Assembly (NCBI GenBank): GCA_039923495.1
Contig: JBDTCO010000006.1
Span: 35,066-99,065 of the forward strand
Direction: 5' to 3'
Length of the DNA stretch: 64,000 bases
From: Polyangia bacterium
Lineage (GTDB): Bacteria > Myxococcota_A > Polyangia > Palsa-1104
Part shown: positions 18,166-62,270 of the stretch, piece by piece
How the letters are laid out: every line of letters begins with the position of its first letter
Position numbering within the stretch: the stretch's first letter is position 1
Position numbers and translations under genes: made by a program
The notes under the pieces: generated by a model
What the model was told of the DNA's origin: nothing
Seen by the model: the letters and a program-made list of their open reading frames with translations, nothing else
Databases searched by the model: none

Positions 18166-18324
18166 ATGTGTCGAAGAGTCGAGTGTTCAGTTTGCAAGAA
18201 GCCCACGTACGCGGGCTGCGGGAAGCACGTGGAGCAGGTGCTTGGGGACGTGCCGACGAAGGAGCGGTGTACGTGTGAGCGCGTGGCTAGCGCAGGCTGG
18301 CTCGCGCGTCTGCTCGGCAGGTGA
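18166..18324 (+). CDS. small Cys-rich (zinc-ribbon-like) protein, 52 aa
   Basis: GGGAGGGG RBS at 18153-18160 then ATG; MCRRVECSVCKKPTYAGCGKHVEQVLGDVPTKERCTCE with 7 Cys and 1 His; below the ORF-track length cut-off; its 3' end overlaps the convergent sigma factor by about 38 nt. Confidence 0.3.
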   Translation: MCRRVECSVCKKPTYAGCGKHVEQVLGDVPTKERCTCERVASAGWLARLLGR

Positions 18325-18991
18325 GCGTGGGGTCGCCCTCGAGGGAACGCGCGGACGCATCGACGACGTCGGCCGGCCTCGCGTCGATGAGAGGTGCGAG
18401 CGCAGCCCGCATCGCGGCGCGCGCGCGGTGGAGTCGGCTCTTCACCGCGTCGACCGACGCGCCAACGACCGCGGCCACCTCGGGTGCGGTGAGGCCCTCG
18501 CCATCGCGCAGGACGAGGACCTCACGCTGCGCGGGATCGAGCGTCGCGAGGGCCCGGAGCATCGCACGCTCGATCTGGCGGCTCGCCGCGGACGCCTCGG
18601 GATCGGGCGCGGACGTGGCGAGGTCGCGGGCCTCGTCGAGCGAAGCCTCGTCGAGCGGCGCGAACTTCGAGCGACGGTGGCGCTTGATGCAGAAGCTGCG
18701 CGCGATCGTGTACATCCACGTCGAGAGCGACGCCCCTCCGCGGAAGTCGCGGATCGTGCGCGCCGCAGCGATGAGCGTCTCCTGCAGGACCTCGCTCGCG
18801 TCCTGTGGGTCGCGACACATGCGCATACCGAACCGATACACGCGCGGCTCGTAGCGGGCGAGGAGTTGCTCCAGCGCACGGCGATCGCCCGTACGACTCG
18901 CGGCCAGCAGCTGTTCGTCGGTGTGCACGAGCGTGGAGTGTAGCCGAACCCGCGGTTTGCGGTACCGGCACGGCCTGTGCTCGATGTCCAC
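18287..18991 (-). CDS. ECF-family RNA polymerase sigma factor
   Basis: Region 2 (LLARYEPRVYRFGMRMCRDPQDASEVLQETLIAA) and region 4 (LTAPEVAAVVGASVDAVKSRLHRAR); start may be GTG 18928 (VHTDEQLLAAS) rather than ATG 18991. Confidence 0.75.
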   Translation of the reverse strand: MDIEHRPCRYRKPRVRLHSTLVHTDEQLLAASRTGDRRALEQLLARYEPRVYRFGMRMCRDPQDASEVLQETLIAAARTIRDFRGGASLSTWMYTIARSFCIKRHRRSKFAPLDEASLDEARDLATSAPDPEASAASRQIERAMLRALATLDPAQREVLVLRDGEGLTAPEVAAVVGASVDAVKSRLHRARAAMRAALAPLIDARPADVVDASARSLEGDPTLTCRADARASLR

Positions 18992-19043
18992 GTGCGCGTC
19001 CCGATCCCGTGAACGAGTGACAGCATTCGGTTCCGACAGCGGC

Positions 19044-19724
19044 CTAGCTCACGTGCCCGATGCGGATGCGGCGGACGTCGTGCTGCTGCTCGATCTCGGC
19101 GATCAAGTTCTCGAGGCCGAGCTCGCGAGGAAACGTCACGTCGAGCGTGACGTCGAGGTGCCGGTCGGCGACGTGACGATCGTAGCGGAGCGTCGTGAGC
19201 GTCACGCCGCGTGCCCCGAGTGCTGCTGCGATGTCGGCGAGCTTCCCGTCGGGTCCGAGCATGAGCTCGACGTGACGACGGAGCTGGCGGTCGTCCTTGT
19301 CCTCGAAGCGTCGCAGCAAGGTGAGCGCGATGACGCCGCAGACCGTGACGAAGCAGGCGACGGGGTACATCCCTGCGCCGGACGCCATGCCGATGGCGCC
19401 GACCAGCCACAGCCCGGCCGCGGTCGTGAGGCCCTGGATCGAAGTGCCCTGCCGCAGGATCGCGCCACCGGCGAGGAAGCCGATGCCCGTGACGATCGAA
19501 GCCGCGATGCGCGAGGGATCGATCGCGACCAGGTCGGTCGAGTGGTAGTGCTGCGCGAAGACGAAGTTGGTGGAGACCACCATGAAGGTCGCCGACGCGA
19601 GCGCCACGAGCATGTGCGTTCGTAGACCCGCCGGACGACCATGGCGGTCGCGCTCGTAGCCGATGATGCCGCCGAGCGACATCCCGATGACGATGCGAAG
19701 CAGCAACGTGGCGAAGGGTTCCAT
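19044..19724 (-). CDS. mgtC: MgtC/SapB-family membrane protein
   Basis: MEPFATLLLRIVIGMSLGGIIGYERD... multi-TM N-domain plus soluble C-terminal domain typical of MgtC. Confidence 0.75.
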   Translation of the reverse strand: MEPFATLLLRIVIGMSLGGIIGYERDRHGRPAGLRTHMLVALASATFMVVSTNFVFAQHYHSTDLVAIDPSRIAASIVTGIGFLAGGAILRQGTSIQGLTTAAGLWLVGAIGMASGAGMYPVACFVTVCGVIALTLLRRFEDKDDRQLRRHVELMLGPDGKLADIAAALGARGVTLTTLRYDRHVADRHLDVTLDVTFPRELGLENLIAEIEQQHDVRRIRIGHVS

Positions 19725-28103: not shown

Positions 28104-28175
28104 GCTTTTCCGGGTCGTGACGCATCGGGAACTTTTCCTGATGCGCGGTGTCTGCTCGGGTAAGGTGCGGGCTCC

Positions 28176-28787
28176 ATGAGCGAAGCCGCAGGGCCGCTGC
28201 AAGCGATACGCGAGGCGCTGCTCATCCGGCGGCTCCGGCAGCGCGACGAGAAGGCGTTCGAAGAGGTCGTCGTGCTGTACCGCGACAAGGTCTTCGGGCT
28301 CGTGCTGCGGATGGTAGGCAACCGCGAGGAGGCCGACGACCTGTCGCAGGAGGTCTTCATCACGGTGCTGAAGTCGATCCACACGTTCCGTGGCGACTCG
28401 AAGTTCTCGACGTGGCTCTATCGCATCGCGTCCAACCACACCAAGAACCGCATGAAGTACCTGCACCGTCGGGCCTACAAGACCACGGGCGAGCTCGACG
28501 AGGCGGCCGAGCATGCGATGACGCGCGGCGATGCCCAGGCGAAGGGTCGCGAGCAGACGCCCGAGTCGGCGATGGCGGGCCGGCAGATCGATCGAGTGGT
28601 GCAGGACGCGATCGCGCAGCTCGACGACGACCACCGCGAGATCATCGTGCTGCGCGACATGGAAGAGCTGTCGTACGAGGAGATCGTCGAGATCACCGGG
28701 CTCGCGGAGGGCACCGTGAAGTCCAGGCTGCACCGCGCGCGAACCGCCTTGAAGGAGCACGTGCAGAAGCGGCTCGGTGAGGGGTAA
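28176..28787 (+). CDS. ECF-family RNA polymerase sigma factor (RpoE-like)
   Basis: Region 2 FEEVVVLYRDKVFGLVLRMVGNREEADDLSQEVFI and region 4 LSYEEIVEITGLAEGTVKSRLHRAR. Confidence 0.85.
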   Translation: MSEAAGPLQAIREALLIRRLRQRDEKAFEEVVVLYRDKVFGLVLRMVGNREEADDLSQEVFITVLKSIHTFRGDSKFSTWLYRIASNHTKNRMKYLHRRAYKTTGELDEAAEHAMTRGDAQAKGREQTPESAMAGRQIDRVVQDAIAQLDDDHREIIVLRDMEELSYEEIVEITGLAEGTVKSRLHRARTALKEHVQKRLGEG

Positions 28788-47534: not shown

Positions 47535-47945
47535 ATGAACAAGTTCATCACGCTCGTCATCCTCGCGTCCTCGTCGCTCGCGTCGTCTGTCGCGCTTGGC
47601 GACAACTCGGGGCAGCGCCCCGGTCCGTCCGCCTGGGTCACGGCGAGGAACCAGCCGCAGTACAACAGCCTGAGGGCGCAGTCGTCGCAGCTGGGTGCGC
47701 GGCTGAATTCCTACAACACGCGTGCGATGACGCCGGCTTCGACCCCCGCCGCGTACAACGCGCTCAAGTCCGAGCAGCGCACGCTGGCCGCACAGGTCCA
47801 GTCGTACAACAGCACCGTGCAGCAGTTCGCGCAGCGCAACCCGGTCTCGCCGTACAACACGCCGGCTGCCACCGCCGCGCGCACGGCTCAGGCGCAGCAG
47901 AACAAGTTCATCATGAACCTCGTCGCGTCGCGCGCGCGTCGCTGA
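47535..47945 (+). CDS. small secreted Asn/Ser/Gln-rich protein, 136 aa
   Basis: GGAGG RBS at 47523-47527; signal peptide MNKFITLVILASSSLASSVALG; overlaps the convergent MerR gene end by about 35 nt. Confidence 0.45.
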   Translation: MNKFITLVILASSSLASSVALGDNSGQRPGPSAWVTARNQPQYNSLRAQSSQLGARLNSYNTRAMTPASTPAAYNALKSEQRTLAAQVQSYNSTVQQFAQRNPVSPYNTPAATAARTAQAQQNKFIMNLVASRARR

Positions 47946-48756
47946 GCGCAGCGTTCCGCGTGATCGCGGCGCGAGCGATCGGCGACGAGCGATCTGCGCA
48001 CAGCTCCGCCCATAGCGAGAGTGCGCGCTCGACGGAGCCTTCTTCCTCGTGCAGCAGCGCACGGCTCATGCGGGCCTGCACGGAGGTCGGATCGAGGACG
48101 AGCGCCTGATCGAGGTGCGTCACCGCTTCCACCTTGTCGCCGCGCGACGCGAGCAGCGCACCGAGGTTGGCGTGCGCCGGTCCGAGGCTCGGATCGAGCG
48201 CGAGCGCGCGACGGTACGCCTCGATCGCCGCGGTGTGGTTGTGCGCCGTCGTCTCGTGCAGCGCGGTGTCGAACCAGCCGAGCGCGGTCGTCGGCACGGC
48301 GTTCGGACCCGACGTCTCCCGGCGCGTGTGCTCGATGGACGTCACCGCACGCGGCACCGCGCGCGCCTCGAGCGCCGCGACCTCCTGCGACAGCTCGTCG
48401 AGCGCGAAGTCCATCACGCGCTGCCCGGTGAGCGGCTCGAAGGGCTGGTCACCCGCCACGACGAGGCGCTCCCCGTCGGAGAGCACGCGGAGGTGGAGCA
48501 GGGGACGATCGAGCGCGGGCAGCTGCGCCCGGAGCGCGTGGATCGCTTCTCGCACGCGCCGCGCGGGGACGCCACGTTCGGTGAGCTCGCGAGCGGCCTT
48601 GGCAGCGACGAGGTCCGTGAAGGCGTACATCGCGCGGCCGCCGTCGGCTGGCCTGTACGATGGACCCACGAGGCCGATCTGCGCCCAGTAGCGCACGCGG
48701 CTCTCGGGCACCCCGATGATGGACGCGACGTCGCGCGTCGACAGGCCGTCGTTCAT
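47911..48756 (-). CDS. MerR-family transcriptional regulator with C-terminal TPR-like domain
   Basis: Internal Met MNDGLSTRDVASIIGVPESRVRYWAQIGLVGPS is the MerR HTH; C-terminal TPR-like helices (AIEAYRRALALDPSLGPAHANLGALL). Confidence 0.7.
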   Translation of the reverse strand: MNDGLSTRDVASIIGVPESRVRYWAQIGLVGPSYRPADGGRAMYAFTDLVAAKAARELTERGVPARRVREAIHALRAQLPALDRPLLHLRVLSDGERLVVAGDQPFEPLTGQRVMDFALDELSQEVAALEARAVPRAVTSIEHTRRETSGPNAVPTTALGWFDTALHETTAHNHTAAIEAYRRALALDPSLGPAHANLGALLASRGDKVEAVTHLDQALVLDPTSVQARMSRALLHEEEGSVERALSLWAELCADRSSPIARAAITRNAALSDARATRRGS

Positions 48757-49214
48757 GGCTGCTCCTTGGCGGAGCCGGACTCCAGGCAGGGGCCCGACTC
48801 CAGATCGAGGTCGACGAGGAGCTTGTGGTCGTCGACGCGGCAGCGCAGCTGACCGGCGCGTACGTCGTCGGGTAGATCCATGCGCGCGCGACCGATCTCG
48901 AGCGCGCGCTGCACCACCGCCTTGCGCGCACGCGCGTCGTCGTGGAGCGCCTCGCACAGCCGGCGGCACATCGCCTCGTCTTGCGGCAGGCGCAGCCGTT
49001 CGTGGCGCAGATCGATCGTGAGCATCGCGGAGCCGAAGAACGCGCCGCCTGCGGAGCTGCCCGAGCTCGCCCCGCCCTCGACGAAGATCTCCGCGTGCTG
49101 GAGCAAGAGGTCGAGCGCGGTGAGGCTCAGGCGCTCGCGAACCTCGCGACGAAAGAGCGGCAGCGTCGGCTCCTCTGGATACGGCGGATGCGCTGTCACG
49201 GCCAAGGCACACAT
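48753..49214 (-). CDS. hypothetical protein, 153 aa, start-coupled to the MerR-family gene
   Basis: Protein-like composition unlike the surrounding Arg-rich frames; its stop overlaps the MerR start (ATGA). Confidence 0.35.
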   Translation of the reverse strand: MCALAVTAHPPYPEEPTLPLFRREVRERLSLTALDLLLQHAEIFVEGGASSGSSAGGAFFGSAMLTIDLRHERLRLPQDEAMCRRLCEALHDDARARKAVVQRALEIGRARMDLPDDVRAGQLRCRVDDHKLLVDLDLESGPCLESGSAKEQP

Positions 49215-51003: not shown

Positions 51004-51881
51004 TGAAACTGCGCGACAGGATGTGGACCACGTCTCGGATCGGGGAGCTCGTGGGGGTGGTGGCGTGCTCGGTGGTGGCAGCGTCGGCGATCCACGCCGG
51101 CCTCGCGCACCTGCTCACGACCCTCGACGGGCTGGGGCTCGCTCCTCCGCTCACCGACATCCTCGCGCCGCGCGCGCTCGGTCCCGCGGCGCACGAGGCG
51201 CGGCGGCTCTTCGTCGAGCTGGGCGTCGTATTCGGGGCGCTCATCGCGGCGTGGCGGACCCGCGCCTCGACGTGGACCGCGCGCTTCTTCTCCTGGACGG
51301 GCGCGGCGGTGCTGTTCTCGGGCTGCTCCTGCGTGCTCACGAGGCTGCTCGAGCGGCAGCTCGGCTTCGTGCCGTTCGGCCTCGCGACCGCGTGTCTCGT
51401 GCAGGTGCCCATCGCGGGGCTCGGCTGCGCGTCCGTCCTCGTTGGTGTGGAGCGCGCAGCAGGCCACGATCATCCGGGCGGCATGGCGTCGCTGGGTGGT
51501 GCGATGCTCGTCGTCCTGCTGGGGCTATCGGGCTACGCGATGCGCCCCGTCTCGTACCAGCCTCGCCCTGCGCACACCGCGACCATGATCCCGTGTCGAG
51601 CATCGCAGCACGACGCGCTCGTGCGCCTGCTCGGCAGCCTCTACCCGATGCTCTCGCTGCAGCAGCGCCACGTGCTCGCCAACCGGCTCGAGGCGCAGCG
51701 GGTCTACGGTCCACCTTGCCGCCCGCCGTCCGGTGTGAGCATCCGCGGGGCTCGTGGCGTGAGCGTCGAGCCGCCCCCGCAGCGTCATGCGCTGTCACTT
51801 TCGCTCGCCGCGATGGGCATCGCGGCGGCCGTCGTGGCGGCGGGCGTGCTGCGCCACCGGACGGCGCGCGCGCACTTTTGA
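51004..51881 (+). CDS. hypothetical integral membrane protein, 292 aa
   Basis: ATG 6 nt after GGAGGTGGAGG RBS; multiple TM helices; no kinase motifs; 40 nt upstream of the NtrC-family gene. Confidence 0.45.
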
Positions 51882-51921
51882 CGTCTGTTTTTTGATACCG
51901 TGGAGCCGCGATGGCGACTCG

Positions 51922-53393
<1,472 letters not shown>

Positions 53394-53394
<1 letters not shown>

Positions 53395-54344
53395 TGCGCA
53401 TCCTCGTGGTCATGGATCCGCCCGAGCTCGTGAACCCCGACGGAGACACGACGCTCGTCATCATGATGGAGGCGCTCGGGCGCGGTCACGAGGTCGCGAT
53501 CTGCGAGCCACGTCACCTCGAGCTCGACGGCGAGCACACGTTCGCGACGGTCACGAGGGTGGAAAAGGCCGAGCGCGCACGACCGCCGTTCGTGCTGTCG
53601 GCGGGCAGGCGCGAGGCACTCTCGAGCTACCAGGTCGTGCTCATGCGCAAGGATCCGCCGTTCGACGTGGATTACTTCACGTCCACGCTGCTGCTCGATC
53701 GCGCCAGGGGCAGGACGCTCGTCGTCAACGATCCGGCGTCGCTGCGCACGTGGAACGAGAAGCTCGCCATCTTCGAGTTTCCGAAGCTCATCGCCGAGAC
53801 GTATGTCACGCGCTCGGTCGCGCGCCTCCGCGAGCTGCTCGGTCAGCTCGGCGGCGAGATGATCGTGAAGCCGCTCGATGGTGCGGGCGGCGCGGGCGTC
53901 TTCTTCGTGAAGCAGGAAGACCGCAACGCGCAGGTCATCTTCGAGTCGGTGTCTATGGGCGAGCGCAAGTGGGTCATGGCGCAGCGCTACCTGCCCGCCG
54001 CGCGCGAGGGCGACAAGCGCATCCTGCTCCTCGACGGCGAGCCCATCGGTTCGGTGCTGCGCGTGCCGCGCTCCGACGACAACCGCGGCAATCTGCACGT
54101 CGGCGGCTCCGCGGTGAGGTCGCCGCTCTCGTCGCGCGAGCAGCAGATCTGCGACGAGGTCGGCGCGTGGTGCAAGCAGCACGGCCTCTACTGGGTCGGC
54201 CTCGACGTCATCGGCGGTCACCTCACCGAGGTCAACATCACGTCACCCACGGGCGTGCAGGAGATCAATCGCCTCGAGGGTCACAGCGGCAAGGCGATGC
54301 TCGAGTCGCGCTTCGTCGACTGGATCGAGCGCCGCGTCGCCTGA
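53394..54344 (+). CDS. gshB: glutathione synthetase (prokaryotic ATP-grasp type)
   Basis: Collinear with E. coli GshB: RILVVMDP, VVLMRKDPPFD, LVVNDPASLRTWNEKL, IVKPLDGAGGAGVF, MAQRYLPAAREGDKRILLLDGEPIG, LTEVNITSPTG; ATG overlaps the regulator stop (TGATG). Confidence 0.9.
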
Positions 54345-54345
54345 C

Positions 54346-56070
54346 GTGAGCGGTCGCTTCCGCACGCTCGCGCTCGTCACGCTCGCGCTCGTCGCGACCG
54401 CCGCGCTGTGGCAGCACCCCGGCTTCCTCTCGGGCGGCTACGACTTTCGCTACTTCGAGAGCGCGATGGAGGCCGCGCGCCGCAACATCGCCTGGTTCCA
54501 CCAGGCGCCGCTCTACGATCCGTGGATGTGCGGAGGCGAGGCGCAGCTCGCCAACCCGCAGTCCATCGCAGGCTCGCCCGCGTTTCTGCTCGTCGTGCTG
54601 TTCGGTACCGCGGTCGGTACGAAGCTCATGATGGTGCTGTTCATCGCGCTCGGCCTCGACGGCATGTATCGCCTCGCGCGACAGAGCGGCCTCGGCGGCG
54701 AGGCGTCCCTCGCCAGCGCGCTGACGTTCGGGCTGTCGGGCTGGGTCGTCGCACACTTCGCGATCGGCCACGTCTCGTTCTTCGGTGCGACGCTGCTGCC
54801 GTACCTCGTGTGCTTTTACCGTCGAGGACTCGATGATCTCCGCTGGGCCGTCGCAGCCGGTGCAGTGGCCGCGCTCATCGTCCTGACGGGCGGAACGTCG
54901 ACGGCCGTGATGGCCGCGGTGTGCCTCGCGGCCATCATCGTCGTCGATGTCGTGACGTTGAAGACCGCGCGGCCGCTGGGCGTCGCCGTCACGGCCGGCG
55001 TGTGCGCGCTCGCGTTCGGTGCGTACCGCATCCTGCCCGCGCTCGAGTTCGCGATCGATCACCCGCGCCACACCGTCGAGACTGATCGCTTCGGCCTCGT
55101 GTCGTTGCTGCGGGCTGCGGTGAGCCTCGACGTCGCCGGCAAGCTCCCGGGGCAGCGCTACGCGCTGCACGAGTATGTCTGGCGCTTGCCGCTCCTCGCG
55201 TGGCCGCTCATCGTCCTCGGCGGGATCGCGCTGTGGAAGCGCACGCTCCCGACGCAGCGCCTCGACCTCACGGTGCTGCTCGTCGCGCTCGTCGGCGTTG
55301 GCGTGGCGATGGGCGACGCGTTGCCGTACGGACCGTGGTGGGTGATGCGGCACGTGCCGGTGCTTCGTGATCTGCGTGCGCCGTCGCGCTACGTGCTGCT
55401 GGTCGCGCTCGCGCTCTCCTTGCTCGCGGGCGCCGGTGTCGAAGCGTTGCGGGAACGGATCTCCGGGCGCTCCATCGTTCTCGTCGTGCTCGGCCTGCTC
55501 GCGCTCGACGGCGTCGTCTTCGCGAACCGCGCGTTCACAGGGGTGTTCATGCTGCCGGCGCCCCCGATCTCCCACGCGAGCTTCCAGCAGGTGCAGGGCC
55601 ACTGGAGCCAGATGCTCCCGCTCGTCTACGCCAACCGCGGCGACGTCGGCTGCGACGAGGAAGCGCCGCTCACCCGGGCGAAGGCGCTCGAGCTCGGCGA
55701 CGTGCCGCAGGCGCGCCTCGAGGATCCGTCCGCGGGTCGCGTGGATCGTATCGAGTGGACCCCCAACGGCTACACGGTGACACTCACCACCACGCGCCCC
55801 ACGACCCTGTTGCTCGACATGAACTGGAGCGAGCACTTCCACGCCAGCGTCGGCAGCGTGAAGCGCTGGGGCGACAAGTGGCCCGCAGACAAGGACGGCG
55901 GCCGCCTCGCGGTCGAGCTCCCCCCGACGGCGGGCACCGTCACCGTCCGCTACCTCCCGCGTACCTTCGTGCTGGGCTGCATCGTCACCCTGCTCGCGGC
56001 ACTCTCGACGCTCTTCCTGGCCCGTCGCGCACGCCCCCGGAAAGGGGACGCGACGCGCACCATCGGCTAG
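54346..56070 (+). CDS. large polytopic membrane protein (GT-C-like candidate), 574 aa
   Basis: GTG start 2 nt after the gshB stop; about 12 TM helices, a soluble domain and a C-terminal TM plus RRARPRK. Confidence 0.5.
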   Translation: MSGRFRTLALVTLALVATAALWQHPGFLSGGYDFRYFESAMEAARRNIAWFHQAPLYDPWMCGGEAQLANPQSIAGSPAFLLVVLFGTAVGTKLMMVLFIALGLDGMYRLARQSGLGGEASLASALTFGLSGWVVAHFAIGHVSFFGATLLPYLVCFYRRGLDDLRWAVAAGAVAALIVLTGGTSTAVMAAVCLAAIIVVDVVTLKTARPLGVAVTAGVCALAFGAYRILPALEFAIDHPRHTVETDRFGLVSLLRAAVSLDVAGKLPGQRYALHEYVWRLPLLAWPLIVLGGIALWKRTLPTQRLDLTVLLVALVGVGVAMGDALPYGPWWVMRHVPVLRDLRAPSRYVLLVALALSLLAGAGVEALRERISGRSIVLVVLGLLALDGVVFANRAFTGVFMLPAPPISHASFQQVQGHWSQMLPLVYANRGDVGCDEEAPLTRAKALELGDVPQARLEDPSAGRVDRIEWTPNGYTVTLTTTRPTTLLLDMNWSEHFHASVGSVKRWGDKWPADKDGGRLAVELPPTAGTVTVRYLPRTFVLGCIVTLLAALSTLFLARRARPRKGDATRTIG

Positions 56071-56593
56071 AGCTTTTCGAGGGCGATGGCGGCTGCCAGC
56101 TGGGCGGACTCACCGACCGCTGCGCTGGTGACGCTGATGTCGACGGTGTGCTCGGTGCCGACGAGGACGTAGGCCTCGCTCGTCATCGGGGTGGTGTGCG
56201 GCTCGCCGATGCGGGTGCGGAAGCCGCGCGTCGACGTCGTGCGCCAGGCCTCGGGCGAGTCGGCGCGGAACGGATGCTCGACGTCGGGGTCGAGGAACGC
56301 ATGCTCGACGCTGAGCTCACCGCCGACGACATCGATCGTGGCGACCTTGCCGTCCGGCCCGTGGTAGATGCGCTCGGCCATGAGGCGCGAGGCCTGCGTC
56401 TTGCGCTCGGTGACGAGGCGCGCGCGCTCGATCGACAGCTTCGGCGCGCCGCTCGACGTCCATCCCCCGGGCAGCGTGGCGGGCAGGAGCGCGGCCATGC
56501 GCTCGATCTCGACCTGATCGTCGGTCCACACGGCCTTGTGCGGCTTGTGTGCGATGCAGCCGGCGAGCAACGCAAACAGGGCGAGGTACCTCA
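56067..56593 (-). CDS. hypothetical lipoprotein
   Basis: GTG start giving MRYLALFALLAGC lipobox; C-terminal protein-like part of ORF 56067..57008, whose upstream part is Arg/Ser-rich junk. Confidence 0.4.
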
Positions 56594-56736
56594 CGAGATG
56601 CGCTTCGTCATCGGAGAGGCGATCCACGCGTGCCCGAGCCGCGCTTCGGTGAGCAGCTGCGCGAGCCCGCGATGCACGGCCTTCGAGTCGAACGGGATGC
56701 GATCGTGCGCGTCGTCGGGCCTGGTCTCGCGCAGCA

Positions 56737-57108
56737 TCAGACCTTGCCGCCCCCGCGCGCGAGCCACTCGGACCAGCCGCCGGCCATCGAGCGGACGTTG
56801 GTGTAGCCCATCTTCTGGATGCTCTCGGCTGCGAGCGCGGAGCGAAAGCCACCTCCGCAGTAAAGGACGATGGGCGTGCCCTTGTCGGGGACGACCATCT
56901 CGATGTCGCGCTCGATGACGCCGCGCCCCATGTGCTCGGCGCCGGTCGCGTGGCCGGCGTGCCACTCGCCGTCCTCACGCACGTCGAGGAGGTGGAACGC
57001 ATCGCCACGCGTGCGTCGGGCGAGGACCTCGTCGACGGTGATCTCGGTGATGCGCTGCTTTGCTGCGTCGACCAGCTTCAGAAACTCGGGGGAATGGGTC
57101 TTGGCCAT
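56737..57108 (-). CDS. single-domain rhodanese-like sulfurtransferase
   Basis: Active-site loop IVLYCGGGFRSA with catalytic Cys. Confidence 0.8.
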   Translation of the reverse strand: MAKTHSPEFLKLVDAAKQRITEITVDEVLARRTRGDAFHLLDVREDGEWHAGHATGAEHMGRGVIERDIEMVVPDKGTPIVLYCGGGFRSALAAESIQKMGYTNVRSMAGGWSEWLARGGGKV

Positions 57109-57135
57109 GGGTCACCTTCCAGGCTACACAAACAC

Positions 57136-58236
57136 ATGGGACTGTCGCTGAGTTACATCGAGAAGCTACCGAAGACGGACCTCCACTGTCACCTCGATGG
57201 ATCGCTCCGCATCTCCACGATCCTCGATCTCGCGGCGCAGCAGAAGGTGCGACTTCCCGCCGAGGATCCGGAAAAGCTGTTCGCGCACATCTACGCGGGT
57301 GACGTGTGCGGCTCCCTGGAAGACTACCTCAAGGCGTTCGACGTCACGCTCTCGGTGTTGCAGACGGAGGAGGCGCTGTTTCGTGCCGCGTACGAGCTCG
57401 CGGAGGACTGCGCGCGCGAGAACGTTCAGTACATCGAGGTCCGCTACTCTCCGATGCTGCACACGCAGAAGGGGCTACGGCTCGCCGAGATCGTCGAGGC
57501 CGTGATCCAGGGGTTGCGCAGGGGTGAGCGCGACTTCGGCGTGCGCTCGGGCGTCATCCTCTGCGGCATCCGCAGCATCAGCCCCGAGGCGTCGCTGCGC
57601 ATGGCGGAGCTGTGCATCGCGTTCAAGAACCGCGGCGTCGTCGCCTTCGATCTCGCGGGCGCCGAGTACAACTATCCAGCGAAGGATCACCGGCAGGCGT
57701 TCCAGCTCATCCTCGACAACAACGTCAACTGCACTGCGCACGCGGGAGAGGCGTACGGTCCGGAGTCGATCGCACAGGCGATCCACGCCTGCGGCGCGCA
57801 TCGCATCGGTCACGGAACGCGTCTTCGCGAGAATGGTGACCTCCTCAATTACGTGAACGACCACCGCATCCCGCTCGAGATCTGCCTGTCGTCGAACATC
57901 CAGACCGGCGCGGCGCCCGACCTCGCATCGCACCCGCTGCCGTTCTTCTACAGCTACGGTCTGCGCGTCACGATCAACACCGACAACCGCCTCGTCACGG
58001 ACACCACGGTGTCGAAGGAGCTGCACCTCGTGCACCGCACGTTCGGGCTCGAGCTCGCCGACCTCAAGGAGATCATCGTGGATGGCTGGAAGTCCACATT
58101 CCTGCCCTACCGTGAGAAAGCGGACATGCTGCGCAAGATCACGCGCGAGCTCGAGCTCTTCACCGGAGATGAGGTGGAAGATGCGCGGCTTCGATCGGAT
58201 CGAGCGGCGCAATCCCCGTCGCTCAGGCGCTCCTGA
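57136..58236 (+). CDS. add: adenosine deaminase
   Basis: Internal Met MGLSLSYIEKLPKTDLHCHLDGS (HxHxDG metal site), catalytic AHAGE, ICLSSN, TINTDN. Confidence 0.85.
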   Translation: MGLSLSYIEKLPKTDLHCHLDGSLRISTILDLAAQQKVRLPAEDPEKLFAHIYAGDVCGSLEDYLKAFDVTLSVLQTEEALFRAAYELAEDCARENVQYIEVRYSPMLHTQKGLRLAEIVEAVIQGLRRGERDFGVRSGVILCGIRSISPEASLRMAELCIAFKNRGVVAFDLAGAEYNYPAKDHRQAFQLILDNNVNCTAHAGEAYGPESIAQAIHACGAHRIGHGTRLRENGDLLNYVNDHRIPLEICLSSNIQTGAAPDLASHPLPFFYSYGLRVTINTDNRLVTDTTVSKELHLVHRTFGLELADLKEIIVDGWKSTFLPYREKADMLRKITRELELFTGDEVEDARLRSDRAAQSPSLRRS

Positions 58237-58331
58237 ACACACGCGTCGTCACCGGTACAATTTGAAGGGCTCCGTCGGACCGCGTACACTTCGCAGCGCG
58301 GTGAGCGTGTGAGCGCCTCGGCGCAAACCAC

Positions 58332-59108
58332 ATGAGCGAATCGAACGAACCGGCCCTGTTGCCGCATCTCCCCGCCGTGTTCAACCTCTGCTCGCGCATG
58401 ACGTTGTCTGCCATCGATGCGCAGCGTGCGACCTACCAGACGTTCCAGCGCGCCGTCATCGGCAAGCCACCCACGGATGCGAACGAGCGCGAGCTGTGGC
58501 TGCTCAAGATCGCGGCGCACCTCGTGACGTCGCGGCTGCCGAGCGAGCCGGAGGTCGACTTCGATCTGCTCGACGACACGCTGCGCTCCGAGGCGACGCG
58601 CACCAACGAGGTCGCGTCGCTCACGTCTCCGCAGCGCGAGTTCCTGCTGTGGGAGCTCAAGCAGGGCTGCATGACCTCGGTCATCAACTGCCTCTCGCCC
58701 GGCGAGCGCGTCGCGTTCGTGTTCTCGTCGGTGATGGGCAAGACTGACGCGGAGGCCGCCATCGCGCTCGACATCAAGGAGAGCGCCTTCAAGGTGCGCC
58801 TCTCGCGCGCGCGCAAGAAGATCGGCGATCACCTCGCGCCGCGCTGCGAGCACATCGATCCGCGCAACCCGTGTCACTGCCCGTCGCGCATCGGGGTCGC
58901 GCTGCGCAAGGGCTTCATCGCGCCGCCGCTCAACGCCGAGGCCACGCTCCGCAAGAACCTTCGGCCGTTCAACAACGAGATCAAGTCGCACGACGCCGTG
59001 GACATCTTCCGCACGCTGCCGCCGGTCGAGGTGCCGGAGGCGCTCGTGCGCCGGATCACCGACTCGCTGCACACCGGAACCTGGGACGACGAGCTCGCGC
59101 AGAAGTAG
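58332..59108 (+). CDS. ECF-like sigma factor with C-terminal Cys/His-rich extension (CorE-like metal-sensing candidate)
   Basis: Region 2-like ATYQTFQRAVIG and region 4 LSPGERVAFVFSSVMGKTDAEAAIALDIKESAFKVRLSRARKKI, then LAPRCEHIDPRNPCHCPSR and about 60 further residues; extra Cys in ELKQGCMTSVINC. Confidence 0.55.
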   Translation: MSESNEPALLPHLPAVFNLCSRMTLSAIDAQRATYQTFQRAVIGKPPTDANERELWLLKIAAHLVTSRLPSEPEVDFDLLDDTLRSEATRTNEVASLTSPQREFLLWELKQGCMTSVINCLSPGERVAFVFSSVMGKTDAEAAIALDIKESAFKVRLSRARKKIGDHLAPRCEHIDPRNPCHCPSRIGVALRKGFIAPPLNAEATLRKNLRPFNNEIKSHDAVDIFRTLPPVEVPEALVRRITDSLHTGTWDDELAQK

Positions 59109-59165
59109 TATCGCCCGCGCTGGCCGCTGCCTCGCAGAACGTCCAGCCAAACAGGAGCACATCCC

Positions 59166-59975
59166 ATGACCGTCATCGGCCACCTGGCCACCGCCGGCGT
59201 CGTCGCCGGCACGACCGGGCTCATTCCCGTTCGCACGACCTTCCGCCTCATCGCCTACTACATCCTCGTGATGGCGTTCTTCGTCTTCTGGATCCACCAC
59301 GCGGATCCGAAGGAGGCGGCCGCGCTCTACATCGACTGGACCGGCAACATCGCCGGGCTCTACTTCGTGTGGAAATACTGGCGCGGCACGCAGGGCCAGC
59401 GGTTCTTCGTCGCGATGCTCGTCGGCAGCCAGCTGCTCGGAGGGTTCAGTCATCCCTTCGACATGCTCGTGCTGAAGATCAATGGCGCGGTCCCCGTCGG
59501 CAAGTGGGAGCCGCAGAACTTCTGGCACACGCCGCTGTTCGGCCTTGCCTATTGCACCCTCGTCTCGCCGCTCATCTGGTGGGTGCTGAAGATCCCGTAC
59601 CGACGCGCGCTCGGCGGGCTCGTGTTCGGCTACGCGCTGCACATCTGCATGGACACCATCACGTACAACTTCCCGATCTACTGGTTCTGGCCGTTCTCGG
59701 GGTGGGGCTGGGCCTTCGCGCAGGCGTGGATTCCCGAGACCACGGGCGCCGCGACGACGTTCGGCGGCGTGCTCTATCGCTTCCGCGACACCGACTACAA
59801 CCCGCACTGGGGCTGGGTCATCTACCAGACCGAGCCGCTCATCAACGTGCTGCTCTCGTTCCTGTTCGCGGCGCAGCAGTGGATGCGCCACTGGGGCCTC
59901 GCGCTGCCCGTCGAGAACCGGACACCTGCCGTCGAGACCCCAACGTCCTTGGACACCCGCAAGGAGTCCGCGTGA
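59166..59975 (+). CDS. Trp/His-rich integral membrane protein
   Basis: 269 aa, about 8 TM helices with conserved His inside helices (WIHHADP, HPFDM, YALHICMD). Confidence 0.45.
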   Translation: MTVIGHLATAGVVAGTTGLIPVRTTFRLIAYYILVMAFFVFWIHHADPKEAAALYIDWTGNIAGLYFVWKYWRGTQGQRFFVAMLVGSQLLGGFSHPFDMLVLKINGAVPVGKWEPQNFWHTPLFGLAYCTLVSPLIWWVLKIPYRRALGGLVFGYALHICMDTITYNFPIYWFWPFSGWGWAFAQAWIPETTGAATTFGGVLYRFRDTDYNPHWGWVIYQTEPLINVLLSFLFAAQQWMRHWGLALPVENRTPAVETPTSLDTRKESA

Positions 59976-59976
59976 G

Positions 59977-60477
59977 TTACTCGCAGTGCGTGCCGGTGCA
60001 GTCGGTGACGCAGCCATTGTCGCAGTGGGTCGTCTTCGTGCCGCACCACAGCTGATCCTCGCGACCGTAGCCCTGCTGTAGATCGTTGCCGACGCACTTT
60101 GCGGCGTTATCGCAGCTGATCGCGGGCGGCACGTTCGCGCTCCACCAGCCGCACGTGTCGATGTCGAGGCGTGCGTCCGCGCAGAAGCGGACCTGTGCCT
60201 TCGTGTCGACTCCGGTGACCTGCTTGCTCGATGCGCACTCGATCCCGGCCTGGCAGTCGGTGCTGGCGTCGCAGGTCTTCACGCACGCGGCGAGCGTCTG
60301 CTCCTTGACCGCGAGCTCGACACACACCTCGTCGGCCCCGCAGCGGGCGCACGTGACCTCGGGCGATGCGCACGCGACGTCGGGGATGTTGTGGGTCTCG
60401 TCGTAGGGCTGCTGGCCTCCACCCGGCTGACAGGCGGCGAGCGAGGCGACGAGGGCGAAGGACACGAGGATCTTCAT
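59977..60477 (-). CDS. Cys-rich secreted lipoprotein
   Basis: Internal Met MKILVSFALVASLAAC lipobox; 24 Cys in 167 aa. Confidence 0.5.
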   Translation of the reverse strand: MKILVSFALVASLAACQPGGGQQPYDETHNIPDVACASPEVTCARCGADEVCVELAVKEQTLAACVKTCDASTDCQAGIECASSKQVTGVDTKAQVRFCADARLDIDTCGWWSANVPPAISCDNAAKCVGNDLQQGYGREDQLWCGTKTTHCDNGCVTDCTGTHCE

Positions 60478-60583
60478 GCCTCGCTCCAGTGCAGCGAGCG
60501 GGCCGCGGTGGTTCACAGAGGCAACGTGTCGAGATCACTCGATCCGCGTGTCTGGAGCACGCGACGCGACCCGGACAATGATG

Positions 60584-61762
60584 TCAGTGGTCCGCGAGAA
60601 CCAGAGCCTGCTCGAGGTCCGCGATCTGATCGTCGATGTGCTCGATGCCCGCGGAGACGCGCACGAGCCCGTCCGCGATCCCGAGCTGCTCGCGCGTGGC
60701 CTGCGGGATGGACAGGTGGGTCATGAGCGCGGGCGCCTCGATGAGCGACTCGACACCGCCGAGGCTCTCCGCGCACGCGAACAGCTTCGTCGCGCGCAGC
60801 ATGCCGCGCGCCCGCTCGAGCGCGCTCTTGTTGAGGGACGGCTTGAGCACGAACGCCAGCATGCCGCCGGGCGCCTTCATCTGCTTCTGCGCGAGCGCGT
60901 ACTGCGGGTGCGACGGCAGGCCGGGGTACGTGACCTTCTCGACAGCCGGGTGCGACTCGAGCCAGAGCGCGAGCTTCATCGCGTTCTCGACGTGGCGCTG
61001 CATGCGCACGGCGAGGGTCTTGGTGCCGCGCAGCACGAGGAAGCAGTCGAGCGGCGAGGGCACCGCGCCGATCGCGTTCTGCATGAACTGGAGCCGCTCG
61101 CAGATCGTCTCGTCCGACGTGATGACCGCGCCACCCACGACGTCCGCGTGCCCGTTGAGGTACTTCGTCGTCGAGTGCACCACCATCGTCGCGCCCAGAT
61201 CGAGCGGGCGCTGCAGCATCGGCGTCATGAACGTGCTGTCGACGGCGAACGGCACCCTCTTGTCGCGGCAGATCTGCGCGACGGCCGCGATGTCGCAGAG
61301 CTTGAGCAGCGGGTTGGTCGGCGTCTCGACCCACACGAGCTTCGTGTTGGGCCGCATCGCCTCGCGGAAGCCATCGGTGTGGCGCGGATCGACGTACGTC
61401 GTCGAGATGCCGAGCTGCTTCATCACGCGCTCGAAGATGCGGTACGTGCCGCCGTACAGATCGTCGCCAGCGACGACGTGATCACCCGCCGACAAAAGGT
61501 GCAGAACCGTCGTGGTCGCCGCGCAGCCGGATGCGAACGCGAAGCCGTGCTTGCCGCCCTCGAGCGCCGCAAGGTTGGCCTCGAGCGCGTAGCGCGTGGG
61601 GTTGTGCGAGCGCGAGTACTCGAAGCCCTTGTGCTCGCCGGGTCCGTTCTGCACGTACGTCGAGGTCAGGAAGATCGGTACCGAGATGGCGCCGGTGATC
61701 GGCTCGGGCGCCTGCCCCGCGTGAACCGCCAGCGTCTCGAGGTGCTTGGATTCGGTGTGCAT
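60584..61762 (-). CDS. PLP-dependent cystathionine gamma-lyase/synthase family enzyme (MetB/MetC/CGL)
   Basis: Start MHTESKHLETLAVHAG; Lys region VVHSTTKYLNGHADVVGG and the overall Cys/Met-metabolism PLP fold. Confidence 0.8.
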   Translation of the reverse strand: MHTESKHLETLAVHAGQAPEPITGAISVPIFLTSTYVQNGPGEHKGFEYSRSHNPTRYALEANLAALEGGKHGFAFASGCAATTTVLHLLSAGDHVVAGDDLYGGTYRIFERVMKQLGISTTYVDPRHTDGFREAMRPNTKLVWVETPTNPLLKLCDIAAVAQICRDKRVPFAVDSTFMTPMLQRPLDLGATMVVHSTTKYLNGHADVVGGAVITSDETICERLQFMQNAIGAVPSPLDCFLVLRGTKTLAVRMQRHVENAMKLALWLESHPAVEKVTYPGLPSHPQYALAQKQMKAPGGMLAFVLKPSLNKSALERARGMLRATKLFACAESLGGVESLIEAPALMTHLSIPQATREQLGIADGLVRVSAGIEHIDDQIADLEQALVLADH

Positions 61763-61766
61763 CGCC

Positions 61767-62270
61767 TTACAGCTCGTCCACGAGATCGGCGCCCTCTTCG
61801 ACGCCGAAGAGCTGCTGCATCGCGGTGCGCTCGACGACGTCCTGCATGCGGGCCCCTCCGTAGCGAGCGACGATGCGATCGTCGTACTCGTCGGCGACGA
61901 CGGCGACATCGTGCACGGTGGCGATGAGCTCGCGCTCGTCCATCGTGACGCCGCCCAGCATCGAGTGGTGGAAGAGGATGACGTTGCCGTCGGGCACGTA
62001 GGCGAAGGCGCCGAAGCGCAGCTTGCCGTTGAGGATGAGGAGCTGACGGAACAGCGACGCCTCGGGCCGGATGCCCGACGCCACCTGCGCGACCGTGCGC
62101 ACGATCGCCTTGTCGTCGTGCTTCGAGCCCTTGCCCGTGGGGACGACGCTGATCATGACGTAGCTCGAGCCCTGGCGAACCAGGTACAGGTGCTCGTCGA
62201 TCTTCTGGAACGCCTGGCTCTTGCCAAGCGCGTGCTCGATGATCTTCTTGCTCTCGGAGACGGCGCTCAT
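61767..62270 (-). CDS. YbjN-domain (T3SS-chaperone-like) protein
   Basis: 167 aa; two-lobed YbjN-like sequence; 5 nt upstream of the PLP enzyme gene. Confidence 0.5.
   Translation of the reverse strand: MSAVSESKKIIEHALGKSQAFQKIDEHLYLVRQGSSYVMISVVPTGKGSKHDDKAIVRTVAQVASGIRPEASLFRQLLILNGKLRFGAFAYVPDGNVILFHHSMLGGVTMDERELIATVHDVAVVADEYDDRIVARYGGARMQDVVERTAMQQLFGVEEGADLVDEL

Follow-up and report, generated by a model that had tools for sequence, protein, structure and literature searches.

How might an extracytoplasmic function (ECF) sigma factor be controlled when its gene is accompanied by no anti-sigma factor, and what might a long, cysteine-bearing C-terminal extension contribute to that control? 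The question is raised by a gene at 58332..59108 (plus strand, ATG start, 258 amino acids (aa)) in a stretch of 64,000 nucleotides (nt) from a Polyangia bacterium (GenBank assembly GCA_039923495.1, contig JBDTCO010000006.1, positions 35,066 to 99,065 of the forward strand), called the window throughout and numbered from its first letter. A preliminary description, made from the letters alone, took the product for an ECF-type sigma factor and a candidate for sensing metal through a C-terminal Cys/His cluster in the manner of CorE and CorE2 of Myxococcus xanthus, and the membrane protein encoded next to it for a possible metal-handling target. Its two open reading frames (ORFs), 58332-59108 (258 aa) and 59166-59975 (269 aa), both on the plus strand, are as described, and the general idea, that a Cys-containing tail of its own regulates the sigma factor, stands, the extension being conserved and no anti-sigma gene being linked; the particulars are different ones. 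Within the sigma family, the part of one-component systems is played by ECF sigma factors that have their sensor on board; to our knowledge, those studied so far are only CorE, CorE2, OrbS and a few ECF41/ECF42 proteins. We put at about even the chances that the window protein is another: a one-component ECF-type sigma factor whose fused regulatory tail of 90 residues is stapled to sigma4 by a four-cysteine (Cys4) metal or redox site.

Domain architecture of the sigma factor

That the window protein is a real ECF-type sigma factor, as first described, follows from two matches: Pfam region 4 (Sigma70_r4_2, PF08281) is found at residues 113-164 (E 5.4e-10; the only Pfam match of the protein), and a family profile built from 22 homologues matches Mycobacterium tuberculosis SigE from sigma2 through sigma4 (E 2.5e-13), with SigW, AlgU, RpoE and CnrH as further matches. 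Reading along the plus strand, a divergent sigma2 (residues 5-68, 58344..58535) aligns to that of SigE and is modelled by AlphaFold2 as helices at residues 5-22, 27-43 and 50-68, with predicted local distance difference test (pLDDT) scores of 89-98. It is followed by the sigma2-sigma4 linker (residues 69-99, 58536..58628), which opens with PEVDFDLLDDTLRSEATRT, and by sigma4 (residues 100-168, 58629..58835), which includes the -35-binding helix-turn-helix and reaches pLDDT 94-97 at residues 121-160. The remaining 90 residues (169-258), starting PRCEHIDPRNPCHCPSR, form the C-terminal extension. The model as a whole has a mean pLDDT of 78 and a predicted template modelling score of 0.78, sigma2 and sigma4 being its confident parts.

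Sigma2 has drifted from the Pfam consensus. Pfam Sigma70_r2 finds no match in the window protein, and the NCBIfam models give weak, generic ECF matches only, all far under their cut-offs (TIGR02937: 25.4 bits, with the cut-off at 42.9). Distant relatives that share the architecture have a normal, strongly matching Sigma70_r2 beside Sigma70_r4_2, and pass the ECF superfamily model TIGR02937 with 68-77 bits; the failed tests are a matter of divergence in the Polyangia clade and not of a missing domain. The linkers of ECF sigma factors are normally variable. In this one, many columns are invariant or nearly so (F77, L80, D81, T83, L84, R85, T89 and R90), and the whole of it, PEVDFDLLDETLRSEATRT (58536-58628), is nearly invariant across Polyangia, with low AlphaFold2 confidence at residues 81-100.

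Cysteines lie on either side of the sigma4 helix-turn-helix. The first group is the pair Cys113-x6-Cys120 (58668..58691), contained in GCMTSVINC (residues 112-120); the preliminary description rightly picked out these extra cysteines, which are conserved, but assigned them to the linker between regions 2 and 4. The AlphaFold2 model has a helix at residues 113-119 and the Pfam region-4 match begins at residue 113: C113 and C120 sit at the N-terminal edge of sigma4, not in a flexible linker. The second group is a Cys knot directly after sigma4, C172-E-H174-x6-C181-H-C183 (58845..58880), which corresponds to the superfamily motif C-x8-C-x-C and falls within LAPRCEHIDPRNPCHCPSR (residues 168-186). 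This string too had been quoted correctly, but 72 residues follow it rather than about 60. The helical remainder of the extension (residues 184-258, 58881..59105) is conserved across phyla, and its helices at 222-228 and 236-248 are modelled with pLDDT >90.

Conservation and spread of the cysteine site

The search for homologues of the sigma protein detected 992, the best 120 of which are about 260 aa long, share 59-91% identity with it and derive from metagenome bins of Polyangia or Myxococcales. In 185,579 species genomes scanned, 149 stretches carried an orthologue, and the named taxa among them are all Polyangia, Haliangiales or Kofleriaceae. Across 86 Polyangia orthologues (48-100% identity) the residues C113, C120, C172, H174, C181 and C183 are each 100% invariant, the position of H182 is taken by Arg in 62, and the extension is conserved over its full length. 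Conservation of the Cys/His cluster is far above chance.

The same layout extends well beyond the Myxococcota. When 1.84 billion cluster representatives were searched exhaustively with the profile, 7,727 matched at E <=1e-3 and 750 at E <=1e-10, the latter being clusters at 50% identity. Representatives at E 1e-22 to 1e-30 are 270-300 aa long, align over the whole profile including the tail, and carry both a Cx6C where sigma4 begins (typically GCTxxMLLCLDR) and a Cx8CxC right after it (typically CGLVNPxNPCRC). Conservation at this distance was read from the 107 full-length representatives, clustered at 50% identity, among the best 150: C113 is kept in 99% of them, C172 in 98%, C181 in 100% and C183 in 99%; C120 is kept in 84% and H174 in only 32%. 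The Cx6C is present in 87 of the 107 and the Cx8CxC spacing, with an NPC core, in 104. The universal core is four cysteines, one in sigma4 (C113) and three in the tail (C172, C181 and C183). Named members with this architecture include Clostridia, Actinophytocola, Planomonospora and Acidobacteria. The tail itself is without any Pfam model, in the window protein (searched to E 10) as in the distant relatives, and is homologous across phyla beyond its cysteines, with a helix ending G-(F/W/R)-(V/I), a variable loop, a helix ending (Y/F)R(S/T)xP and a final helix. The window sigma factor is a Polyangia-wide member of an ECF type that is known bioinformatically and has no experimental representative. 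The combination of Cys in sigma4, a Cx8CxC and a helical tail is kept by nearly all full-length proteins among the best 150.

Just as the Cys-bearing extension is conserved, no separate anti-sigma factor accompanies it. As had been noticed from the sequence, no anti-sigma-like gene follows that of the sigma factor, the next ORF being YdjM-like; across about 90 loci no co-directional neighbour recurs and no anti-sigma Pfam domain was found, and there is therefore no linked anti-sigma factor.

Resemblance of the tail to anti-sigma domains

A profile of the tail alone, run against 177,635 PDB sequences, found its best match in the anti-sigma domain of RsiW (E 0.036). The aligned part consists of helix III, a proline and helix IV, pairing DAVDIFRTLPPVEVPEALVRRITDSL of the window protein (residues 221-246, nt 58992-59069) with EMEKSIALVRSTSHVEAPADFTANVMAKL of RsiW. 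In shuffle controls the real score was reached in 0 of 2000 trials for RsiW and in 0-1 of 2000 for the fused tail of M. xanthus ABF87529.1, which is a zinc-binding anti-sigma (ZAS) type of tail; the scores for three other anti-sigma domains were not significant. After their zinc sites, both RsiW and the ABF87529.1 tail have the pattern l..l.R.lP...(a/v)P..l...i, which recurs in the last two helices of the window tail. ABF87529.1 is one ECF sigma factor with a fused anti-sigma-like tail; ECF48, ECF52, ECF53 and ECF270 are of this design too. In common with class-I (ZAS-type) anti-sigma domains, the window protein has a putative thiolate site associated with a putatively inhibitory module; unlike in those domains, its cysteines come before the first helix of the tail, and one of the proposed ligands is supplied by sigma4 itself. 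The window protein has no transmembrane segment, and regulated proteolysis of a membrane anchor is not to be expected. Its AlphaFold2 model shows the closed sigma2/sigma4 geometry seen in the anti-sigma-bound SigW-RsiW complex. Our conclusion, of moderate confidence, is a tail that serves as a fused regulatory domain, which plausibly either descends from an anti-sigma domain or has converged on one, and whose docking would depend on a Cys4 metal or redox site.

Proposed mechanism

As the four universal cysteines are split between sigma4 and the loop by which the chain leaves it, the simplest reading would be a single site that pins the tail to sigma4. C113, at the start of sigma4, and C172, C181 and C183, in the exit loop, would together make up a tetrathiolate site stapling the tail back to sigma4, in the simplest case Zn(Cys)4, though an Fe-S cluster is also possible; C120 and H174, likewise invariant within the Polyangia clade, are further candidates for ligands. 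Thus anchored, the tail would pack between or against sigma2 and sigma4 and hold the protein closed, and it would be the occupancy or the oxidation state of the thiolate site that decides whether the sigma factor opens onto RNA polymerase. We infer, then, metal binding by the cysteines, an inhibitory tail and a redox or metal signal. A narrower version of the proposal, which we advance only tentatively, would make the tail an anti-sigma domain that has degenerated and is joined to its own sigma factor: the HxxxCxxC site of the domain would have been lost and rebuilt as a Cys4 site with C113, leaving a single inter-domain site to be unlatched by oxidation or loss of metal, and the whole would be a thiol-redox one-component sigma factor.

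Several points weigh against the proposed mechanism of a stapled, inhibitory tail. Firstly, the resemblance to anti-sigma domains is weak (18 bits for the best match), three of the five anti-sigma domains tested gave nothing significant, and the tail has neither the canonical HxxxCxxC zinc motif nor a match to zf-HC2 even at E 10. Secondly, AlphaFold2 may predict ECF sigma factors as compact whatever their true state, and in the Cys loop its pLDDT is only about 48-60, so that the proximity of the cysteines and their binding of metal are presumed rather than modelled with confidence; loops that bind metal usually receive low pLDDT when modelled without it. Thirdly, the divergence of sigma2 in the Polyangia clade, to the point of not being recognised by Pfam, casts some doubt on whether the protein is a working sigma factor. 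Fourthly, deletion of the Cys-rich tail inactivates CorE and CorE2 rather than activating them, and the sign of control may differ from the one proposed. Finally, the tail was never found standing alone: all 74 matches of a profile of the extension only were truncated or mis-started sigma genes that include sigma4, or fragments on very short contigs.

Were the narrower version, a thiol-redox switch, to hold, it would describe a design common to at least 750 sequence clusters in Actinobacteria, Firmicutes, Acidobacteria and Myxococcota. In Polyangia, the position of this core syntenic gene beside those of glutathione synthetase (gshB), a rhodanese and a cystathionine-type pyridoxal phosphate (PLP) enzyme would hint at control of thiol homeostasis, analogous to that by SigR-RsrA but within one polypeptide. 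Highly conserved, syntenic and present once per locus, the Polyangia orthologue offers a clean entry to the inter-domain thiolate control of a sigma factor.

Relationship to described ECF groups

The architecture closest to that of the window protein among those described is that of ECF287 and ECF288, two groups of the 2021 ECF reclassification (Casas-Pastor et al., PMC7826278; supplement 10.1101/2019.12.11.873521). As far as the group descriptions in the supplement go, both have a C-terminal extension of 80-100 aa without a Pfam domain, and regulation through their cysteines is proposed (10.1101/2019.12.11.873521). ECF287, from Actinobacteria, is described with "2C in sigma4, C in C-ter extension", with a tail of unknown function that is about 80 aa long and with no anti-sigma factor; ECF288, from Firmicutes, is given Cx6C(x5C) in sigma4 and Cx7CxC, or CGx2GxGxCxC, in the tail (10.1101/2019.12.11.873521). 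Set against these descriptions, the window protein agrees in the length of its tail (90 aa), in the lack of an anti-sigma factor and in having two cysteines in sigma4, and the Cx6C of ECF288 sigma4 matches C113-x6-C120. It departs from them in its Cx8CxC, which is one residue longer than the Cx7CxC of ECF288 and not Gly-rich, in its divergent sigma2, and in its origin, since Myxococcota, here Polyangia, is a phylum that the descriptions list for neither group. The neighbours they name, a DUF2461 gene for ECF288 and MerR/TetR and hydrolase genes for ECF287, are not found at the window locus. Proteins of this layout from actinobacteria and clostridia align to the window family profile along its whole length, at E 1e-24 to 1e-30. 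To judge by the group descriptions, the window sigma factor is a myxobacterial member of that kind, which we place in no numbered group. No experimental characterisation of ECF287 or ECF288 was found, the only mentions in the literature being the classification paper and one review.

Alternative explanations

A serious alternative, if on balance an improbable one, gives the Cys4 site a structural role only, that of a zinc staple by which the tail is folded. The protein would then be a constitutively competent, housekeeping-like alternative sigma factor of Polyangia, and its control would lie in its abundance or in an unlinked partner rather than in metal or redox. A structural role is common among invariant Cys4 sites, and the gene has much of the character that this explanation asks for: a syntenic orthologue stands once per locus in 149 genome matches across Polyangia, Haliangiales and Kofleriaceae, among housekeeping neighbours (adenosine deaminase, gshB and the cystathionine-type PLP enzyme), the identity of its product, 48-91%, is of a height unusual among ECF sigma factors, and upstream there is a candidate for a sigma70-like promoter. 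Yet in every group tested (ECF41, ECF42, CorE and OrbS) the extensions of ECF sigma factors without an anti-sigma factor have turned out to be regulatory, and a 90-aa tail with conserved surface motifs exceeds the needs of a staple.

Unlikely, by comparison, is the explanation with which this locus was first described, namely a sensor of the CorE/CorE2 type, in which Cu, Zn or Cd bound by the C-terminal Cys/His cluster and the upstream Cys would switch the sigma factor on and with it metal-handling genes, such as that of the downstream His-rich membrane protein. CorE and CorE2 of M. xanthus belong to ECF44, now in or near ECF238. CorE-like proteins have a strictly conserved CxC between sigma2 and sigma4.2 (C120/C122 in CorE, C108/C110 in CorE2; PMC4937300, PMC6851896), a C-terminal Cys-rich domain of 21-50 aa with four invariant cysteines (181, 184, 192 and 194 in CorE; Cx2Cx7CxC), no anti-sigma factor and a mostly metal-related gene neighbourhood (PMC4937300, PMC3107203, PMC6851896). 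Expression of CorE and CorE2 does not depend on the metal signal, and in CorE the cysteines before sigma4 are thought to bind metal jointly with the tail cluster and so to set the active conformation. The logic of the window protein is the same, in that an ECF core without an anti-sigma factor has Cys before sigma4 and, after it, a Cys cluster ending in CxC; the invariant H174 and the H182 frequent in Polyangia would add His ligands, which CorE-like Cys-rich domains allow, and the sigma and membrane genes are 57 nt apart on the same strand. A counterpart to signal-independent expression is suggested only by the housekeeping-type promoter candidate.

In its details, however, the comparison, which rests on published motif positions, goes against a CorE-like protein. 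The upstream pair is CxC in CorE-like proteins and Cx6C in the window protein, and 0 of 104 superfamily representatives have a CxC 40-85 residues before the tail motif. The tail has three cysteines, spaced Cx8CxC, instead of four, with only the terminal CxC and one upstream Cys being analogous, and it is a 90-aa tail with a helical domain where CorE-like proteins have 21-50 aa. The SigZ model (ECF238s9) scores 22.8 bits on the window protein against 28.4 for SigE, no better than generic ECF models, and falls below the generic models in the distant relatives too. Whereas CorE-like genes lie among genes of metal homeostasis, no copper, zinc or cadmium genes were found within about 10 kb of the window sigma gene, and none of the 85 related loci contains the membrane gene, which does occur elsewhere with no sigma gene beside it. 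By these motif and neighbourhood comparisons, membership of ECF44 is not supported; for annotation, a Cys-rich tail alone is no ground for the label of a CorE-like metal sensor.

OrbS of Burkholderia cenocepacia (ECF243) offers a second point of comparison, its C-terminal Cys cluster being an on-board sensor in which the binding of Fe(II) impairs interaction with core RNA polymerase. OrbS resembles the window protein as an ECF sigma factor without an anti-sigma factor and with a C-terminal Cys cluster; it differs in the spacing of that cluster (Cx2Cx3Cx5C) and the shortness of the tail that bears it, in belonging to a FecI-like clade and in its context of siderophore genes.

Very unlikely is a non-working sigma factor in Polyangia, a decoy or adaptor comparable to the sigma-like domain of PhyR that binds another regulator instead of RNA polymerase, for whilst the silence of Pfam Sigma70_r2, the low TIGR02937 score and the alteration of canonical sigma2 motifs relative to the distant relatives would suit such a mimic, the protein aligns to SigE end to end at E 2.5e-13 (against E 0.17 for PhyR-type chains), W56, the IA pair and the sigma4 helix-turn-helix are conserved, and the protein has no receiver domain and its gene no linked NepR-like gene.

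Genomic context and promoter

Directly upstream of the sigma gene, on the same strand, is an adenosine deaminase gene (57136..58236, plus strand; Pfam A_deaminase, E 4e-97), whose start is approximate, having been read from the ORF translation. The gene occupies this upstream, same-strand position in 68 of 85 related loci; in one (L085) it lies downstream on the other strand. Five long orthologue contigs and the window share a conserved block. It holds genes for a sigma54 activator of the NtrC type, for glutathione synthetase and for a membrane protein of roughly 580 aa, together with a rhodanese gene on the other strand, the adenosine deaminase gene and the sigma gene itself. In the window the neighbours are an NtrC-like regulator, gshB (53394-54344), the membrane protein, the rhodanese (56737-57108, minus strand), adenosine deaminase, a Cys/Met PLP enzyme of the cystathionine type (60584-61909, minus strand), a YbjN-like protein and a tetratricopeptide repeat (TPR) protein. 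The block (51787-58236 and 60584-62270) is rich in thiol and sulfur genes, which may reflect function or only synteny. Its multi-pass membrane protein (574 aa in the window, 54346-56070, plus strand) belongs to no Pfam family and directly follows gshB in 13 related loci, at 38-58% identity.

What lies beyond the sigma gene varies from locus to locus. The next gene encodes a 384-aa protein unrelated to the window membrane ORF in L001, a Laminin_G_3 protein in L002, a 365-aa protein in L003 and HSP70 in L005; in L004 no gene follows, and the convergent gene of the Cys/Met PLP enzyme comes directly next. Clustering of the neighbouring ORFs over 85 loci, in which the high G+C content produces many spurious ORFs, left as real recurrent neighbours only adenosine deaminase, the Cys/Met PLP enzyme, the YbjN-like gene and, in Kofleriaceae, a divergent lipoprotein. 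In the Kofleriaceae/Haliangiales loci (L020-L085) 1-2 kb separate adenosine deaminase from the sigma gene, and in 26 of these loci the insert carries a divergent, Cys-containing, lipoprotein-like ORF (for example L047, 3083-5041, minus strand).

A candidate sigma70-like promoter, TGAACA-16-TACAAT (58234..58261, plus strand), is placed directly after the stop codon of the adenosine deaminase gene and precedes the sigma start by about 70 nt. No other such match occurs in 56500-61000, where shuffled sequence would lead one to expect 0.3. TACAAT is also present upstream in L008, L010 and L012, the upstream regions of 15 loci otherwise aligning poorly. From this motif, the sigma gene appears to have its own housekeeping-type promoter, which would fit control at the level of the protein.

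The downstream membrane gene

The gene that follows that of the sigma factor after a gap of 57 nt (59166..59975, plus strand, ATG start) encodes a YdjM-like membrane protein of 269 aa. The protein itself has no match in Pfam (to E 10) or NCBIfam. Its homologues number six in 5.8 billion clusters, and two of the six match PF04307 (YdjM / DUF457), with a best E of 1.1e-6. Residues H6, H96, D99, H121, H159 and D163 are invariant among them, a set of His and Asp that fits the annotation of the YdjM family as a putative membrane-embedded, metal-dependent hydrolase. In this genome the gene may be co-transcribed with the sigma gene, since the gap is short and no terminator was found between the two.

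Adjacency of the two genes is confined to relatives about 90% identical to the window. Homologues of the membrane protein with 56% and 49% identity adjoin OmpA and MMPL/methyltransferase genes, with no sigma gene nearby, and comparison of the window with L004, whose sigma factor is 78% identical, reveals a 1.5-kb insertion that holds the 269-aa membrane ORF together with a Cys-rich, lipoprotein-like ORF on the minus strand. The YdjM-like gene is a lineage-specific insertion and not a conserved partner or target; few in its homologues, missing from the related sigma loci and apparently of YdjM type, it does not bear out the role of metal-handling target first suggested for it, and in annotation it should not be read as part of the system. 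The second ORF of the insertion (59977-60516, minus strand, 179 aa) has the lipoprotein-type signal MKILVSFALVASLAAC, many cysteines and no Pfam or NCBIfam family; the insertion is absent from the 85 related loci. On a low-coverage long-read contig from a close relative (L088, 5001-6206) the sigma and YdjM-like genes are called as one protein of 401 aa, probably through a frameshift or assembly error rather than as a real fusion.

Other regulatory genes in the window

Two ordinary ECF sigma genes are found elsewhere in the window, at 18290-19048 (minus strand) and 28164-28784 (plus strand), the products of which match both Sigma70_r2 and Sigma70_r4_2 and have no Cys-rich tail. At 47911-49212 (minus strand) a MerR-type helix-turn-helix is fused to TPR repeats, and a similar gene stands at the edge of the related locus L003.

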